From NCBI GenBank assembly GCA_036567985.1, contig DATCTK010000089.1, forward strand, positions 29,375 to 93,374: a stretch of DNA of 64,000 bases, written 5' to 3'. The translations under genes were made by a program, and so were the position numbers. Under the pieces are notes generated by a model that saw only the letters and a list, made by a program, of their open reading frames with translations, was not told the origin of the DNA and ran no database searches. Of the stretch, positions 4,372 through 61,768 are shown piece after piece (positions within the stretch are counted from its first letter, which is position 1; every line of letters starts with the position of its first letter). The DNA comes from Gammaproteobacteria bacterium. GTDB lineage: Bacteria > Pseudomonadota > Gammaproteobacteria > SZUA-229.

Positions 4372-4560
4372 TAAGTCTCCTGTGAAATGTTGATTTAAAA
4401 CTCATGTGGCTCTAAACAATTCATCCATAAATTCTCAGAGCAGGAACAGAAACAGGATAAATTTCTATTTACCCTGTTATTTATTTTCAATGAATCATGC
4501 ATCATCGAAAATAGCGTCACATCTATGTGTCACAACATGCCTTATGTAATCAGTAATTCC

Positions 4561-28570: not shown

Positions 28571-28639
28571 CTGGCAGCTGATTATAAACCCGCTGCCGAT
28601 TTTCCCGGCCAGTTTAGTGGTCGGGCTTTCAAACGGTAA

Positions 28640-28846
28640 TTAAACCGCCTGAATGTTCTCTGCCTGAGGGCCTTTCTGACCCTGGGTTACATTGAACTGT
28701 ACTTTCTGGCCTTCATTCAGTGTTTTGAAACCTGAGCCGGTAATTGCACTGAAATGTGCAAATACATCCGGGCCTGATTCCTGTTCAATAAAACCAAAAC
28801 CTTTTGCTTCGTTAAACCATTTTACGGTGCCATTTGTAATAGACAT
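28640..28846 (-). CDS. cspA: cold-shock protein, CspA family
   Basis: Trimmed to [35 protein letters not shown]... (68 aa) with an AGGA RBS. Classic RNP1 (KGFGFI) and RNP2 (VFAHF) motifs. Confidence 0.92.
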
Positions 28847-29187
28847 AATGTTATCCTGTTTGATATTTTTAAATGTGCCGGATGAAAAATTCATCGGCAG
28901 CTGTGGCCGGAATGTTGTGCTAGTAGATATGAAAAAACAGGACGAGTTACGTTGATGTGACATCGAAATGGTGTTGCATAAATAGAAGTGTTACTTTCAA
29001 GCTGTGGTCATTGTACACCTGTTTTACAGCAATAGGTGATTTATTATGACTGTTTGCATTTATTTACGTTTATTTGTAAGCAGCCCTGCTACGGTCGGGT
29101 GCTTTCGCAGCAGAACTTTAGTCAGCCAAACACGGCCTAATAAAGATAATTAAGCCATATCACCACCAATACGGACAAATTAGCCCC

Positions 29188-29739
29188 ATGTTTAAACAAA
29201 TCACACAAACCATTAGCCAGCCGCTGGCCTGTATAGCCGGCAGTAGTCTTTACTGGCTGGCCCTGGCGGCGTTCAGCCTGTTAAACCTGATTATTGCACT
29301 GTATTACCAGTATGCACTGAACGAATGGCCCTGCGTGCTGTGTATCCATATTCGCCTGTGGTTCTCTCTGCTGCTGGTACTTGGTATTGTCGGCTTTTTC
29401 CTGCGCCGGCATCCCTGGCCCCGGCTGCTGAGCCACCTGGCCAGCCTGCTGGTGGCGGTGGGTCTGGGGGAGCGCAGCTATATGCTGCTGGGCACGGAAA
29501 AGGGTTTTGTATTTTCAGACTGCGGTTTTGATGCGGGCCTGCCCGGCTGGCTGGCACTGGAAGACTGGCTGCCCTGGCTGTACCGGGTAGAAACCTCCTG
29601 CGGTTACACCCCGGAGCTACTACTGGGTATTACCATGGCAGAGGCATTAATGGTGTTGTCTGTGGGCCTGGTGTTATTGACGCTGGGCATGAGCATAGCG
29701 ACTGCAATGACTCTGCTTAAGCAGAATCCGCATAGATAG
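29188..29739 (+). CDS. dsbB: disulfide bond formation protein B
   Basis: 183 aa. Four TM helices, a CVLC motif in the first periplasmic loop and a second Cys pair (SDCGFDAG...SCG). Confidence 0.75.
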   Translation: MFKQITQTISQPLACIAGSSLYWLALAAFSLLNLIIALYYQYALNEWPCVLCIHIRLWFSLLLVLGIVGFFLRRHPWPRLLSHLASLLVAVGLGERSYMLLGTEKGFVFSDCGFDAGLPGWLALEDWLPWLYRVETSCGYTPELLLGITMAEALMVLSVGLVLLTLGMSIATAMTLLKQNPHR

Positions 29740-29825
29740 GCCATTAACCCAACAATGCGCTTTATACATATGGGCTAAATTCGGTATATTACTGCTTAAC
29801 CTGCATAATTTTTTAAGGATCATAT

Positions 29826-30161
29826 ATGAGTAACGAGATTACAGAAAACCTGAAGCAGCAATCCACCTGGATGCGTGGTTTGTATATGCTGCTGTTCGCC
29901 GTGCTTTACAGCCTGGCAGAGTTTGTACTGATTGCGGTGGTGGTATTGCAGTTCCTGCTGAAACTGTTTACCGGCGAAACCAACCCGCGGCTGCTCAAGC
30001 TGGGACAGAGCCTGGCAAGCTATATTTACCAGATTATCGAGTTCCTCACCTTTAACAGTGACTACCAGCCCTATCCATTCGGTGCATGGCCGAAAAAGCA
30101 GCCCGCATCACTCAAACACAAGCCCCAGGATATTGATGACACCGATAATGCCGGTGTCTGA
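29826..30161 (+). CDS. small membrane protein, possibly DUF4389-like
   Basis: 111 aa with two hydrophobic helices. A weak family guess. Confidence 0.35.
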   Translation: MSNEITENLKQQSTWMRGLYMLLFAVLYSLAEFVLIAVVVLQFLLKLFTGETNPRLLKLGQSLASYIYQIIEFLTFNSDYQPYPFGAWPKKQPASLKHKPQDIDDTDNAGV

Positions 30162-30202
30162 TTCTGGCCGTACACTTTAGACCAGTAAGACGGGATCATT
30201 TT

Positions 30203-30814
30203 ATGTACGCCGGAGAACGCTTTAACAGCATCAGTCACCTGGTAGGTGCCGTCGCCGCACTTGCCGGTGCCGTGGTACTGGTGGTGTATGCATCGATGCA
30301 GGGGGATCCCTGGAAAATTGTCAGCTTCAGTATTTACGGCACCACACTGTTTATGCTGTATCTGTTTTCGGTGCTCTATCACAGCCTGAACGGCGAGGTG
30401 AAAAAGTTTTTTCGCCGGCTGGATCACCTGGCCATCTACCTGCTTATCGCCGGCACCTACACGCCTTTTACCCTGGTAACCCTCAACGGCATCTGGGGCT
30501 GGTGGATTTTCGGCGCAGTCTGGGGGCTGGCATTGCTCGGTATGTTGCTGGAGTTTGTGCCACAAAAACGTCGTATTCTGCCGGTGATTATCTACCTGGT
30601 GATGGGCTGGATTTGCCTGGTTGCACTTGAACCGTTGCTGCAGACCCTGCCCATGGTGGGCTTCTGGTGGCTGCTGGCCGGTGGGCTATTCTATACCGTG
30701 GGCATAGTTTTTTACGCGCTGGACAAGCGACTTAAGCACGCGCACGGCATCTGGCACCTGTTTGTTCTGGCGGGCAGTGTCTGCCATTATTTCTGCGTAC
30801 TGCTGTATGTCTAG
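30203..30814 (+). CDS. hemolysin III / PAQR-family membrane protein
   Basis: 203 aa. Seven TM helices. His-containing motifs (SISHLVGA, LYHSL, HGIWHLFV) typical of the family. Confidence 0.75.
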   Translation: MYAGERFNSISHLVGAVAALAGAVVLVVYASMQGDPWKIVSFSIYGTTLFMLYLFSVLYHSLNGEVKKFFRRLDHLAIYLLIAGTYTPFTLVTLNGIWGWWIFGAVWGLALLGMLLEFVPQKRRILPVIIYLVMGWICLVALEPLLQTLPMVGFWWLLAGGLFYTVGIVFYALDKRLKHAHGIWHLFVLAGSVCHYFCVLLYV

Positions 30815-30908
30815 GCACTTCCCCTGAACTCGAAACAATCATCTTCAGCGCAGGAAAAAAGGCCCTGAGGCACTACACTCATAAAAAGATAAATGACCAG
30901 GTAAACCC

Positions 30909-31892
30909 ATGAAACTGATAGAAGTCATTGCCAACGAAGAAACAACTGAAACCGTATCCGACATTGCCAAACGTAATGCCGCACTGGATTTCAGGCTGGC
31001 ACAAAAACTGGACGATGGACGCCAGGCGATGCGCATTTTATTACAGGATGAAAATGTGCAAGCCACGCTGGATGGTCTGCAGGCGATAATCAGCAGTCAG
31101 CCCAAAGCCCGACTGATCGTGTTTCCGGTGGAAGCCGCCCTGCCACTGCCCAATAAAACCACAACAGCGAAAAAATCTGCCAGCGCCACCTCCAGAGAGG
31201 CGCTGTATGATGCAGTCTCCAAAAATGCCGTACTGGATTCGAATTTTATCGTGCTGGTGATCCTCTCCACCCTGGTGGCGGCGATTGGACTGATCAAGGA
31301 CAATGTCGCAGTGGTCATCGGCGCAATGGTCATTGCACCCTTACTGGGGCCAAACCTGGCGCTGGCACTGGGCACAGCGCTGGGGGATCTGCAGCTGATT
31401 CGCAAATCGATTGTCACCAACCTGGCGGGCATGGCACTTACCGTGGTGCTGTCGATTATCCTCGGTGTACTCTGGCCGTTTGCCATCCACAGTCACGAAC
31501 TGATGTCGCGCACCGATGTGGGGCTCGACTCACTGGCGCTGGCGCTGGCCTCGGGCGCAGCAGCAGCGCTGTCGCTCAGCACCGGTCTGTCCAGTGTACT
31601 GGTGGGAGTGATGGTGGCGGTAGCCCTGTTACCCCCGGCGGCCACCTTCGGCCTGATGCTGGGTCATGGCGAGGTGCAACTGGCGCTGGGCGCGCTGTTA
31701 CTGCTAGCCGCCAACGTGGTGTGCGTTAACCTGGCCACCAAGGTGGTGTTTATGGTCAAGGGCATCAGCCCGCGCACCTGGTTTATGAAAGAAAAAGCGC
31801 GGCGCCGCATGTATATTTATATTGCCCTGTGGCTGTTCAGCCTGCTGGTGCTGGCGGTGGTGATTTATCTGCGTGGCAATATGCAGGGCTAA
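30909..31892 (+). CDS. DUF389 / TIGR00341-type membrane protein
   Basis: 327 aa. Soluble N-terminal region, then a multi-TM glycine-rich C-terminus. A family guess from overall architecture. Confidence 0.45.
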   Translation: MKLIEVIANEETTETVSDIAKRNAALDFRLAQKLDDGRQAMRILLQDENVQATLDGLQAIISSQPKARLIVFPVEAALPLPNKTTTAKKSASATSREALYDAVSKNAVLDSNFIVLVILSTLVAAIGLIKDNVAVVIGAMVIAPLLGPNLALALGTALGDLQLIRKSIVTNLAGMALTVVLSIILGVLWPFAIHSHELMSRTDVGLDSLALALASGAAAALSLSTGLSSVLVGVMVAVALLPPAATFGLMLGHGEVQLALGALLLLAANVVCVNLATKVVFMVKGISPRTWFMKEKARRRMYIYIALWLFSLLVLAVVIYLRGNMQG

Positions 31893-32054
31893 ATTCCCTG
31901 CAGAACTGAACCGCCTTGTGAAAATTGATTTATGTGGATGTTTGAAGTTTTCTGGCCGTTCAATTTGCATTAGTCAAGGATCCATCGGATCTTGTGCAGC
32001 ATGGCTTGCTCTATAGCATTCTTGACAATCAACTCAACTGTCTTATCTAAGGAA

Positions 32055-32087
32055 GCTCTGAATAATTCATCCATGAATTATCAGAGC
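32055..32087. repeat. 33-bp near-palindromic core of a ~90-bp intergenic element. A paralogous copy lies at 4409-4441.
   Basis: GCTCTGAATAATTCATCCATGAATTATCAGAGC here, against GCTCTAAACAATTCATCCATAAATTCTCAGAGC at 4409-4441. Similarity extends ~60 bp further (AGAGCA..AACA.A..CA..AT.AAA ... TTTTCAAT). Confidence 0.7.
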
Positions 32088-32230
32088 AAAAACAAATCAA
32101 AATGCGATTTCGATTTGTTTTTAATTTTCAATAACTTAACAGTTATTGAAAATGGCGGCACATCCCTGTGCCGCGGAACCTCTGAGTTTTTCAGAGGTTC
32201 CCTAAATTTTCCTTCACGATATTTTTAACT

Positions 32231-32682
32231 GTGCTTTTTCGCCTTTCTGGCGACTCACTTCTTTTTCTGCAGCAAAAAAGAAGTAAGCAAGAAAATGCCG
32301 TTCCCGGTCACTTGCCCGCAAAAGGCGGCGGGTTCCCGAAAATGCTGTGAGACGGTATTTTGTTTTGGATAAGCTTATTGATTGAACTGTCTTCGTTGCC
32401 GGGTCGTGCTGGAGTGCCATCCAGGCACATCATCACTCAAAATCACGTCCTGTGATTTTGCCCCTGCGTAGAAAGCATTTTCGGCAAGTGACAGGGAAGT
32501 TTGTCGCAAGACCTTCGTTTGAAAAGCAATTTGACCGTTCGGTATGGAGCTGTTTCCCCTTCGCACAAGCTGATGAGCGAGTGATTTTTGTGGAGGCTGT
32601 ATTCCGGACGTCCTGCCCTTCACCCTTCGGGCCAGGGATGGCTTTCGTAAAGAAGTAAGTCGCCAGAAAGACGAAATAGCAC
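32231..32682. repeat. ~450-bp segment bounded by 34-bp imperfect terminal inverted repeats. It is MITE-like or a structured RNA.
   Basis: Left arm GTGCTTTTTCGCCTTTCTGGCGACTCACTTCTTT (32231-32264). Reverse complement of the right arm (32649-32682): GTGCTATTTCGTCTTTCTGGCGACTTACTTCTTT, 31 of 34 identical. The interior has only short unconvincing ORFs and a 9-bp-stem hairpin at 32436-32458. Two strong hairpins lie just outside at 32157-32206. Confidence 0.5.
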
Positions 32683-32748
32683 GATCCCGAATCTCATCAA
32701 GGCAAACTATAAAACATGACATTAATGCTGATACTGAGAAATACGCAC

Positions 32749-61334: not shown

Positions 61335-61504
61335 AAGCAAAGGAAACCGCAAATAAACGCGAATGAACGCAAATGCTTAATAAAATAATATTTTAATTGC
61401 GTTTATTTACGTACATTTATTCCGCACATCCTGTGCTCCACCCTTCGGGCAGTGCATTCGCACGTTCAAATTGCTCCTGCACTTTAATGCATTTTCTTTT
61501 TAGA

Positions 61505-61589
61505 CTGTAGGTTGGGGTGACGCAGGAACCCCAACATAAACCGACAGTAGATATCATCGTTGGGGTTCCTGCGTCACCCCAACCTACAG
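61505..61589. repeat. perfect 31-bp inverted repeat with a 23-nt spacer (an intergenic palindromic element)
   Basis: CTGTAGGTTGGGGTGACGCAGGAACCCCAAC ... GTTGGGGTTCCTGCGTCACCCCAACCTACAG. Each arm also contains an internal hairpin (GTTGGGGT...ACCCCAAC). Confidence 0.85.
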
Positions 61590-61626
61590 ATCGTTCAAGG
61601 ACGAACGACCAAAGGCGATGCACCTC

Positions 61627-61709
61627 CCTCTCGCAAAATACCGTACATCCTGTACATAACCGCTACCGGCGTCCTGCCTCTCGCGGAATACCGTACATCC
61701 TGTACATAA
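61627..61709. repeat. two 33-bp direct repeats, each containing a GTACA-TCC-TGTAC inverted motif. A third related site, GCACATCCTGTGC, lies at ~61426.
   Basis: CCTCTCGC(AA/GG)AATACCGTACATCCTGTACATAA at 61627-61659 and 61677-61709, 50 bp apart, upstream of purA. Confidence 0.7.
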
Positions 61710-61746
61710 AAAAAGCCCTGACAGTTTTTCTGTCAGGGCTTTTTTA
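61708..61746. terminator. bidirectional rho-independent terminator between the DHH gene and purA
   Basis: AAAAAAAGCCCTGACAG-TTTTT-CTGTCAGGGCTTTTTT. An 11-bp perfect stem flanked by an A-run and a T-run. Confidence 0.85.
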
Positions 61747-61768
61747 TACAACAAGAAACGCTGGAAAT

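Follow-up and report, generated by a model that had tools for sequence, protein, structure and literature searches.

Our analysis revealed that an intergenic gap of 856 bp in a Gammaproteobacteria bacterium of the SZUA-229 lineage is filled by two nested non-coding repeats, and that it contains neither a missed gene nor a one-off RNA. The gap is located on contig DATCTK010000089.1 (assembly GCA_036567985.1), of which a stretch of 64,000 nucleotides was analysed (hereafter the window), and it separates the 3′ ends of two convergent genes, namely a DUF389 membrane-protein gene and a gene for a PDC/dCache-like sensor. The larger repeat is a mosaic with terminal inverted repeats (TIRs) that fills the whole intergenic region, and its centre matches the Rfam motif TwoAYGGAY (RF01731). 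The smaller one is a miniature inverted-repeat transposable element (MITE) of 151 bp that interrupts the right arm of the larger repeat. We hold, with moderate confidence, that the large element is best explained as a trans-mobilised repeat similar to repetitive extragenic palindromes (REPs) and bacterial interspersed mosaic elements (BIMEs), with a constrained RNA (or single-stranded DNA) core and a nested MITE. Both elements are known kinds of bacterial intergenic repeat, and the occurrence of TwoAYGGAY inside a REP-tipped, high-copy repeat provides useful context and no new class. For the annotation of the window the result is mostly housekeeping. An initial annotation of the same DNA had described a gene-free stretch of 650 bp holding a candidate MITE or structured non-coding RNA. 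The region is indeed gene-free but longer than stated, and both proposals apply to different parts of it: the MITE is the block at 32051-32201 and the structured nucleic acid is the core of the TIR-bounded element, whose boundaries had to be redrawn.

The TwoAYGGAY core and its relatives

Copies of the large repeat were collected by a scan for the TIR core in one genome per species and by a metagenome scan with a 20-nt pattern from the core. The first scan found seven contigs of the metagenome-assembled genome (MAG) Mix_mud18.2022.04.64, also a Gammaproteobacteria bacterium, and one contig of another MAG. One of the seven Mix_mud18 contigs (L016) carries the orthologous locus, immediately 3′ of the sensor gene, and the others carry copies elsewhere. 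The second scan returned 54 metagenome loci, 51 of which are true members; L026, L043 and L063 were dropped since they match the search pattern only. One 338-kb metagenome contig has eight copies within 140 kb. Additional genomic copies, for which the initial annotation had suggested searching, are thus present, with at least seven in one MAG and 51 metagenome loci. Scans of viral contigs with the core pattern gave no match, and two viral matches to the 18-mer TIR core had nothing else in common with the element. Similarity searches with 32100-32748 gave no match in E. coli genomes, plasmids or phages, and the 64-kb window contains no second copy of the large element and no R1-type REPs of its relatives.

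TwoAYGGAY is the sole Rfam family matched in the region, and no other family was found when the collected loci were scanned. The Rfam scan, another check that had been proposed, thus identified the core, with a score for the window copy below the gathering score (35.6 vs 43 bits). Three relatives score above it (L058 with 45.3, L055 with 45.0 and L067 with 44.3 bits), and the window copy is assigned to TwoAYGGAY by its homology to such above-threshold copies. To our knowledge the motif has been without an assigned function or context since 2010, and no functional study of it was found in the literature searched. Its seed alignment includes several loci of Psychromonas ingrahamii (Weinberg et al. 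2010 supplement, PMC2864571). Outside the modelled motif, the 3′ flank of the unit described below is approximately 75-80% identical to three of these seed loci over 56-84 nt.

The motif forms the centre of a conserved unit of approximately 285 nt that is common to the subfamilies A, A2 and B and to the Psychromonas loci. This unit consists of a long helix P1, hairpin 1, hairpin 2, a hypervariable linker of about 45 nt, a small hairpin, a 3′ hairpin of 12-14 bp and a GCGCC-type hairpin. Hairpin 1 is the interior 9-bp-stem hairpin that the initial annotation had already noted (CAAAATCAC-GTCCT-GTGATTTTG). In the window copy its loop reads AGGAC on the RNA strand and is one base shorter than the ACA-RGGA-UGU of the family; among 38 copies the loop is AGGGAUG in 15, AGGACG in 15 and another sequence in the remaining 8. 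The loop of hairpin 2 is NGGAY in 38 of 38 copies. The unit thus shares with the described TwoAYGGAY RNA the two adjacent hairpins with (A)YGGAY-type loops closed by the long P1 helix, the gamma-proteobacterial host and the lack of a fixed gene neighbour. The window copy differs from it in its lower score and its shortened hairpin-1 loop, and here the motif is only the centre of the unit inside a TIR-bounded, REP-tipped, high-copy mosaic of 0.7-0.95 kb. This repeat context is covered neither by the Rfam model nor by the original description. The divergent subfamily B (eight copies) and the Psychromonas loci contain the unit without the TIR arms.

B-type units were also found in pairs. Two are arranged in tandem, 408 nt apart, at L038:6400-7460, and further pairs occur at L055:2460-2970 and L067:4140-4770. 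In these three loci a further, inverted unit lies beyond one or two REP doublets forming hairpins (REPINs), resulting in a large inverted-repeat layout unlike that of the window subfamily.

The helices of the core covary, and its conservation is very uneven. In an alignment of 38 distinct units with a consensus structure of 70 pairs, 98.6% of the cells are paired. Fourteen pairs are changed on both sides, compared to 6.5 +/- 1.6 in column shuffles (0 of 500 reach 14) and to 0-4 when partners are slid. The 24 pairs of P1 are paired in 98.6-99.4% of cases, and two of them are changed on both sides. Between copies, identity is 95% in the 5′ strand of P1, 93% in hairpin 1 and 90% in hairpin 2, and drops to 61% in the linker and to 57% in a 5′ variable stretch. 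A pairing between the latter two was considered and rejected, because the sequence types of the two show no co-variation. When the window is compared with the orthologous L016, identity reaches 88.6% over 395 nt of the core, against 57% at 4-fold sites and 65% at third positions in the sensor gene. The core is therefore far better conserved than neutral sites or the repeat's own linkers, and either it is under purifying selection or its copies are homogenised by conversion. Folding energies far beyond those of shuffled sequence (z = -7.0 for the minus and -4.5 for the plus strand) bear out the earlier impression that the segment is too structured for spacer DNA. Furthermore, among pairs with a Watson-Crick majority, G-U variants outnumber A-C variants on the TwoAYGGAY strand by 14 to 6, and by about 15 to 4 on a second alignment. 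This asymmetry leans towards a folded strand of TwoAYGGAY polarity, which may be RNA or single-stranded DNA.

Architecture of the mosaic repeat and the nested MITE

The inverted repeat reported in the initial annotation was reproduced computationally, with 31 matches in 34 positions between 32231-32264 and the reverse complement of 32649-32682, and none of 100 dinucleotide shuffles gave any match. It is the inner part of longer arms that extend to 58 nt at 78% complementarity (32207-32264 and 32649-32706). While the TIRs stand, the proposed limits of an approximately 450-bp element at 32231-32682 do not, since homology with relatives runs from about 31967 to 32745. The TIR core of the right arm, GTCGCCAGAAAGGCGAAA, is invariant in most copies. 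Full-length relatives are mosaics of 0.7-0.95 kb with arms of at least 160 nt, which are tipped by GTAG-type REPs (GTAGGGTGG...). From the outside to the inside, these arms consist of a GTAG-headed REP (GTAGGGTGGnATCAAGCGAAGCGGATCCACC), a linker of about 25 nt, TGCTTTAAAAGCATTCTGTGACAATCAAC, ATTCACCTTCACGATATTCTGAACTGTGCTG, the inner TIR and the local hairpin. The arms of the window subfamily look like an inverted duplication of the 3′ end of the unit. Canonical copies have 552 nt between the inner TIRs. In the window copy, the conserved left module of about 250 nt is swapped for about 50 nt of a small palindromic module, which recurs as a 71-nt insert elsewhere in other copies. With this module lost, its REP tips degenerate and its hairpin-1 loop shortened, the window copy is an old and partly eroded member of the family.

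The age of the element is also reflected in close relatives of the locus. Two loci with sensor proteins 93% (L006) and 92% (L077) identical to that of the window have intergenic regions of about 140 nt, in which a central-hairpin remnant of about 50 nt is kept (alignment score 37 vs 18 +/- 2 in shuffles); in L077 hairpin 1 is intact and shows a compensatory change. No clean empty site for the large element was found in close relatives, and the presence or absence of the whole as a unit, which the initial annotation had proposed to compare between related strains, is thus not what these two loci show. The persistence of such remnants means that the element, or its core at least, has long been present at this locus and that its erosion differed between lineages.

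A comparison of L016:1654-4974 with window positions 29001-32205 showed no similarity downstream of the orthologous copy, and gene order changes at the repeat. The metagenome and Logan contigs L002, L003, L004 and L005 end 178-304 nt beyond the sensor gene, within the repeat or at its edge, and L002 ends exactly in the hairpin-1 loop; such ends fit assembly breaks at repeated or palindromic sequence. Repeats of this kind matter for metagenome assembly, as several contigs broke inside them.

The block at 32051-32201 is a bona fide MITE that was inserted at CTAA and duplicated that site. It starts with GGAAGCTCTGA and finishes with TCAGAGGTTCC, and its 11-bp TIRs are inverted at 10 of 11 positions. 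The metagenome contig L001, from the same species, encodes an identical sensor protein in near-identical flanks and keeps the TIR-bounded element, but is without exactly these 151 bp and has a single CTAA in their place. For the nested MITE, presence or absence as a unit and target duplications could thus both be confirmed, with a clean empty site in one contig and CTAA on both sides in the other. Full copies, 90-96% identical, occur at unrelated sites in L045, L056 and L076. The flanking duplications are CTAA/CTAA in the window, TTAA/TTAA in L045, CTAA/CTAA in L076 and an imperfect pair in L056. The insertion sequence (IS) IS5 duplicates a 4-bp YTAR target (PMC5009759), and the MITE shares this kind of duplication (CTAA, TTAA, CTAA). 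It differs from the IS5 family in that it is only 151 bp long, has no transposase gene and has an interior of stacked hairpins, and it fits the class of bacterial MITEs fully. Its ends start with GGAAG, which resembles the ends of IS5. Because of the YTAR duplication and this end, an IS5-type transposase acting in trans is the likely agent of its movement.

Two adjacent perfect hairpins had been assigned to the surroundings of the TIR-bounded element. Both are present, GCGGCACA-TCCC-TGTGCCGC at 32155-32174 and GGAACCTCTGA-GTTTT-TCAGAGGTTCC at 32175-32201, but they are part of the separate nested MITE. In a terminator scan they appear as back-to-back terminator-like sites, one on each strand, between the convergent genes. 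The minus-strand hairpin lies just past the right arm of the unit and would terminate transcripts of the sensor gene once they have passed the repeat core; the plus-strand hairpin faces the DUF389 gene and would halt its transcripts ahead of antisense entry into the core. Bacterial MITEs are often co-transcribed with their neighbours and can supply terminators or processing sites. At window positions 4409-4540, between two open reading frames (ORFs) of the minus strand, lies a degenerate relative of the nested MITE. It has the same series of stacked hairpins, the first of which is 88% identical over 34 nt, and no recognisable TIRs.

Features of the gap, its flanking genes and one related contig (window positions unless a locus is named)
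Feature	Position	Strand	Basis or remark
DUF389 membrane-protein gene	30909-31892	+	Convergent neighbour
PDC/dCache-like sensor gene, 317 aa	33702-32749	-	Convergent neighbour
Whole mosaic repeat, A-type member, deletion derivative	31967-32745 (about)	- (TwoAYGGAY RNA orientation)	Homology to >50 copies in related genomes and metagenomes; arms align out to the degenerate REP
Degenerate REP remnant at right-arm tip (relatives: GTAGGGTGGnATCAAGCGAAGCGGATCCACC)	31967-31991		Arm alignment
Right TIR arm (34 nt of the initial annotation: 32231-32264)	32207-32264		Contains small hairpin TCGCC-TTTCT-GGCGA
Left TIR arm (34 nt of the initial annotation: 32649-32682)	32649-32706		31/34; 58 nt at 78% complementarity
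Small palindromic module CCCUGGCCCGAAGGGUGAAGGGCAGG...	32598-32648		Replaces the ~250-nt left module of canonical copies
Conserved ~285-nt unit (subfamilies A, A2, B and Psychromonas loci)	32231-32514	-	Alignments, consensus fold, covariation, seed-locus homology
TwoAYGGAY match (Rfam RF01731)	32363-32486	-	35.6 bits vs gathering score 43, E = 0.004
Hairpin 1, CAAAATCAC-GTCCT-GTGATTTTG	32438-32460	-	RNA-strand loop AGGAC
Hairpin 2, GUGCC-UGGAU-GGCAC (RNA strand)	32415-32429	-	Consensus fold; compensatory changes in B-type copies
Hypervariable linker	32347-32392	-	61% mean pairwise identity vs 90-95% in flanking helices
3′ local hairpin ACUUCUUUUU...AAAAAGAAGU, adjoins right TIR	32254-32287	-	Most compensatory changes: 6/14 pairs doubly changed
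Nested 151-bp MITE, stacked hairpins	32051-32201		TIRs GGAAGCTCTGA / GGAACCTCTGA, 10/11; absent from L001; copies in L045, L056, L076
Target-site duplication CTAA, left copy	32047-32050		Comparison with L001 and other MITE copies
Target-site duplication CTAA, right copy	32202-32205		Comparison with L001 and other MITE copies
Terminator-like hairpin GCGGCACAGGGAUGUGCCGC then CAUUUUCAAU, within nested MITE	32155-32174	-	Terminator scan
Terminator-like hairpin GGAACCUCUGA-GUUUU-UCAGAGGUUCC then CUAAAUUUUC, within nested MITE	32175-32201	+	Inverted-repeat search, terminator scan
Gene for REP-associated tyrosine transposase, 151 aa (NF047646, 127.6 bits; Pfam Y1_Tnp)	L031:2081-2536	-	Family-library match

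Spread of the repeat and possible role of its core

Several observations link the large repeat to REPs. The arms of many copies contain a REP at a constant position, and on either side the GTAG head faces outward. B-type units adjoin REPIN doublets, with a second, inverted TwoAYGGAY unit beyond them, and the Psychromonas units are followed by GTAG-type palindromes. Contig L031 encodes a REP-associated tyrosine transposase (RAYT) at a distance of about 4.6 kb from a B-type TwoAYGGAY unit. This RAYT gene is flanked on both sides by REPs of the sequence GTAGGAG(T/C)nAGCTTTAGCT, the type found beside B units. The repeat family furthermore avoids promoter regions, since 30 (64%) of the 47 copies for which neighbours could be called on both sides lie between convergent genes, 15 between tandem genes and only 2 between divergent genes; REPs show a comparable distribution (PMC3733652). 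The large repeat thus shares with REPs, REPINs and BIMEs the high copy number, the extragenic position mostly between convergent or tandem genes, the GTAG-headed palindromes that many relatives carry in inverted pairs with heads outward, the mosaic of several repeat modules, the missing target duplication and, in a related contig, a RAYT gene with flanking REPs. It is different from REPINs of about 70-110 nt in that its inverted REPs are 0.8-0.9 kb apart around a large asymmetric conserved core. In addition, mobilisation by a RAYT is here deduced from association, and the window copy has lost intact REP tips.

The repeat would be non-autonomous and would probably spread in the manner proposed for REPs, REPINs and BIMEs, with a folded single strand that is handled in trans by a RAYT. 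Such a route would leave no target duplication. Given the association with REPs and the lack of target duplications, spread of a single strand by a REP/RAYT-type route is the most economical reading, and the large element appears to resemble a BIME/REPIN-like repeat more than a classical MITE.

A classical MITE would be an internally deleted DNA transposon of about 0.6-0.9 kb whose 34-58-bp TIRs are bound in trans by a DDE transposase and whose internal structure is incidental. The large element does show the traits of such elements, as its TIRs are real and kept among copies, it is multi-copy and non-coding, its length varies by internal deletions and insertions and its locus differs between close relatives, although full copies, at 0.7-0.95 kb, are at or above the usual MITE size. 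Non-coding, multi-copy elements with terminal inverted repeats are also seen in the Correia elements (CREE) of Neisseria, ERIC and RUP. Unlike for those elements, however, no target duplication, parent IS or empty site was found for the large element, and its conservation peaks centrally. Specifically, target-site duplications at its TIRs, which the initial annotation had suggested looking for, did not turn up, as no direct repeats were seen outside the arms of the 34 copies inspected; the ends are modular and this result is therefore not airtight, but a duplication was missing at every well-defined end. No transposase was found between TIR pairs in about 0.5 Mb of loci, where all ORFs belong to host genes. 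Conservation is lowest in the outermost bases and highest in the centre, the opposite of what binding by a transposase predicts. Moreover, these TIRs are missing from the B-type and Psychromonas relatives, which do have the core, and close relatives of the locus hold a core remnant instead of an empty site. On this evidence we regard a classical MITE as rather unlikely. A structural element acting at the DNA level, similar to the BIMEs of E. coli, appears unlikely as well. Such an element would work in double-stranded or cruciform form, as a bidirectional transcription barrier or as a site for nucleoid proteins or gyrase, and would have no role as RNA. The enrichment between convergent genes, the depletion at divergent promoters, the palindromic architecture and the comparable distribution of REPs (PMC3733652) would suit it, as would the small GC hairpin and T-rich run that are met inward from either end and were flagged by the terminator scan. 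These inward-facing hairpins are weak, however, with stems of 5 bp, and the conserved core is asymmetric and forms no part of the palindrome. In addition, G-U-type variants are in excess of A-C-type ones on one strand, and Rfam and Weinberg considered the family to which the core belongs to be a probable RNA on the basis of covariation.

That the gap encodes a protein or a toxin-antitoxin locus, with a short ORF such as the one of 115 aa at 32375-32722 on the minus strand or a hok/sok-type hydrophobic peptide as the real feature, we consider next to negligible. Stop-free runs of 53-106 codons are present in many copies and the pairing between the far ends is reminiscent of hok mRNA, but the short ORFs of the gap gave no match in a Pfam search and the 15 ORFs of 20 aa or more that were inspected include no hydrophobic or toxin-like one. 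A 1-nt indel in the hairpin-1 loop divides the family roughly in half (16 copies without and 22 with the extra base), so that no reading frame is conserved across the repeat, and further indels between copies that are not multiples of three disrupt every frame. The left part of the 115-aa ORF also lies in a module that is missing from other copies. The earlier judgement that the interior ORFs are non-coding is therefore upheld. A type I toxin-antitoxin system similar to hok/sok, to which the 5′-3′ fold-back and the short ORFs had drawn attention, was ruled out on the same grounds, namely the broken frames and the missing hydrophobic peptide. We also give little credit to an independent gene for a trans-acting small RNA (sRNA) with its own promoter and terminator, which would resemble multi-copy sRNAs or sponges of the CsrB/RsmZ type and would owe its copies to gene duplication. 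Its conserved and covarying secondary structure and the CsrA-like hairpin-1 loops discussed below would be in line with such a gene. However, no promoter-like site and no intrinsic terminator after the unit on the RNA strand were found, there are only two GGA loops per unit and no Rfam match to CsrB, CsrC, RsmX, RsmY or RsmZ, and a mobile repeat is indicated by the dozens of copies per genome, with their mosaic arms and REPs.

Inverted pairs of copies about 0.75-2.2 kb apart in L064 and L070 were also considered as autonomous elements and are read as separate copies. The interior of the pair in L064 codes for a LysR-type regulator and for a protein of 205 aa that belongs to no recognised type of transposase (translations judged by eye), and that in L070 contains short ORFs only.

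Returning to the trans-mobilised, REP/BIME-like repeat, we propose that its core is kept by selection for action as a folded strand, most likely as an RNA that would be read through from the 3′ end of the upstream gene. In the window, the stop codon of the sensor gene is immediately followed by the unit in sense orientation, and the terminator-like hairpin of the MITE comes after the right arm, which makes a read-through 3′ untranslated region (UTR) containing the unit plausible. The two ANGGAY-loop hairpins, set in a long helix, would then provide a two-site platform for a dimeric protein and/or stabilise the 3′ end.

A number of points weigh against this explanation. Transcription of the unit is itself presumed, and a search for sigma-70-like promoters in the window copy and in one canonical copy found none. 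In tandem-gene contexts the unit is co-oriented with the genes in 9 cases and opposite in 6, a lack of bias that lends no support to a sense-only requirement. The asymmetry between G-U and A-C variants is modest (14 vs 6 corresponds to p ~0.1, and the copies are non-independent), covariation cannot separate RNA from single-stranded DNA hairpins, and the core pattern fixes 20 nt of the core, in the 3′ strand of P1, by construction. The high identity to the core of L016 could reflect gene conversion among copies and not selection. As for the mode of spread, the 64-kb window contains no RAYT, the single one found comes from a different genome and has flanking REPs of a type unlike that of A-type arms, and the window copy retains its REP tips only in degenerate form. 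REPs and the repeat could also simply share intergenic niches, or one could target the other. Along long contigs, the orientation of copies (majority/minority 6/2, 3/0, 4/0 and 3/1) hints at a bias that is not clearly beyond chance, and several metagenomes replicate one population.

One possible partner of the core is suggested by the loops. Systematic evolution of ligands by exponential enrichment (SELEX) gave the consensus RUACARGGAUGU for CsrA, in which ACA and GGA do not vary and GGA occupies a hairpin loop (PMC4347634). In half of the copies, hairpin 1 has an ACA-RGGA-UGU loop, which fits this consensus, and the NGGAY of hairpin 2 lies at a distance of about 30 nt. As a candidate partner that could be tested, this suggests a dimeric RNA-binding protein such as CsrA, for which the AGGAC loop of the window copy would be a weaker site. 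CsrB and RsmY/Z share with the unit the GGA in hairpin loops, and two sites about 30 nt apart could suit one CsrA dimer. In contrast to these RNAs, the unit has two GGA loops only, no similarity in sequence or by Rfam and no promoter or terminator of its own, so that the resemblance is one of motifs. It would be a long shot to regard TwoAYGGAY units as dual-site modules for CsrA/RsmA dimers, whose hairpins are held in register about 30 nt apart by P1 and which a REP/RAYT-type vehicle has copied into dozens of 3′ UTRs. If true, the repeats would act as a distributed CsrA sponge or would wire many convergent-gene 3′ ends into the Csr regulon. An orphan Rfam motif would thereby gain a function, and a selfish repeat would be found to spread an RNA that binds a regulatory protein.

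In these Gammaproteobacteria and, judging from the seed alignment, also in Psychromonas, TwoAYGGAY is the constrained centre of a high-copy mosaic repeat with GTAG-type REPs at convergent gene ends. This context narrows the questions about the motif to read-through into 3′ UTRs, to binding of a dimeric protein to the two loops and to movement by RAYTs, for which Psychromonas offers a cultivable host.

Further repeats in the window

A classic REPIN with two inverted GTAG-headed REPs, CTGTAGGTTGGGGTGACGCAGGAACCCCAAC ... GTTGGGGTTCCTGCGTCACCCCAACCTACAG, is located at 61501-61592. Sub-threshold Rfam matches of this region to the plant microRNA precursors MIR5387 and MIR840 are false positives caused by its long hairpin. 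The same type of REP also flanks copies of the large repeat in L037, L054 and L066. More intergenic repeats were found at 61350-61450 and 61634-61747, including a AAATAAACGCGAATGAACGCAAATG-type module that is also found next to the sensor gene of L004 and close to copies in L025 and L053. The small palindromic module that is nested in the large element has a relative at 61418-61450. A direct repeat of about 45 nt in the same set of repeats ends in a strong terminator and gave a weak match to Thr_leader (30.8 bits, gathering score 55). Furthermore, a sub-threshold match to the cspA thermoregulator (39.5 bits, gathering score 78, E = 1e-6) at 28583-29003 on the minus strand overlaps a cold-shock-domain gene and its leader.

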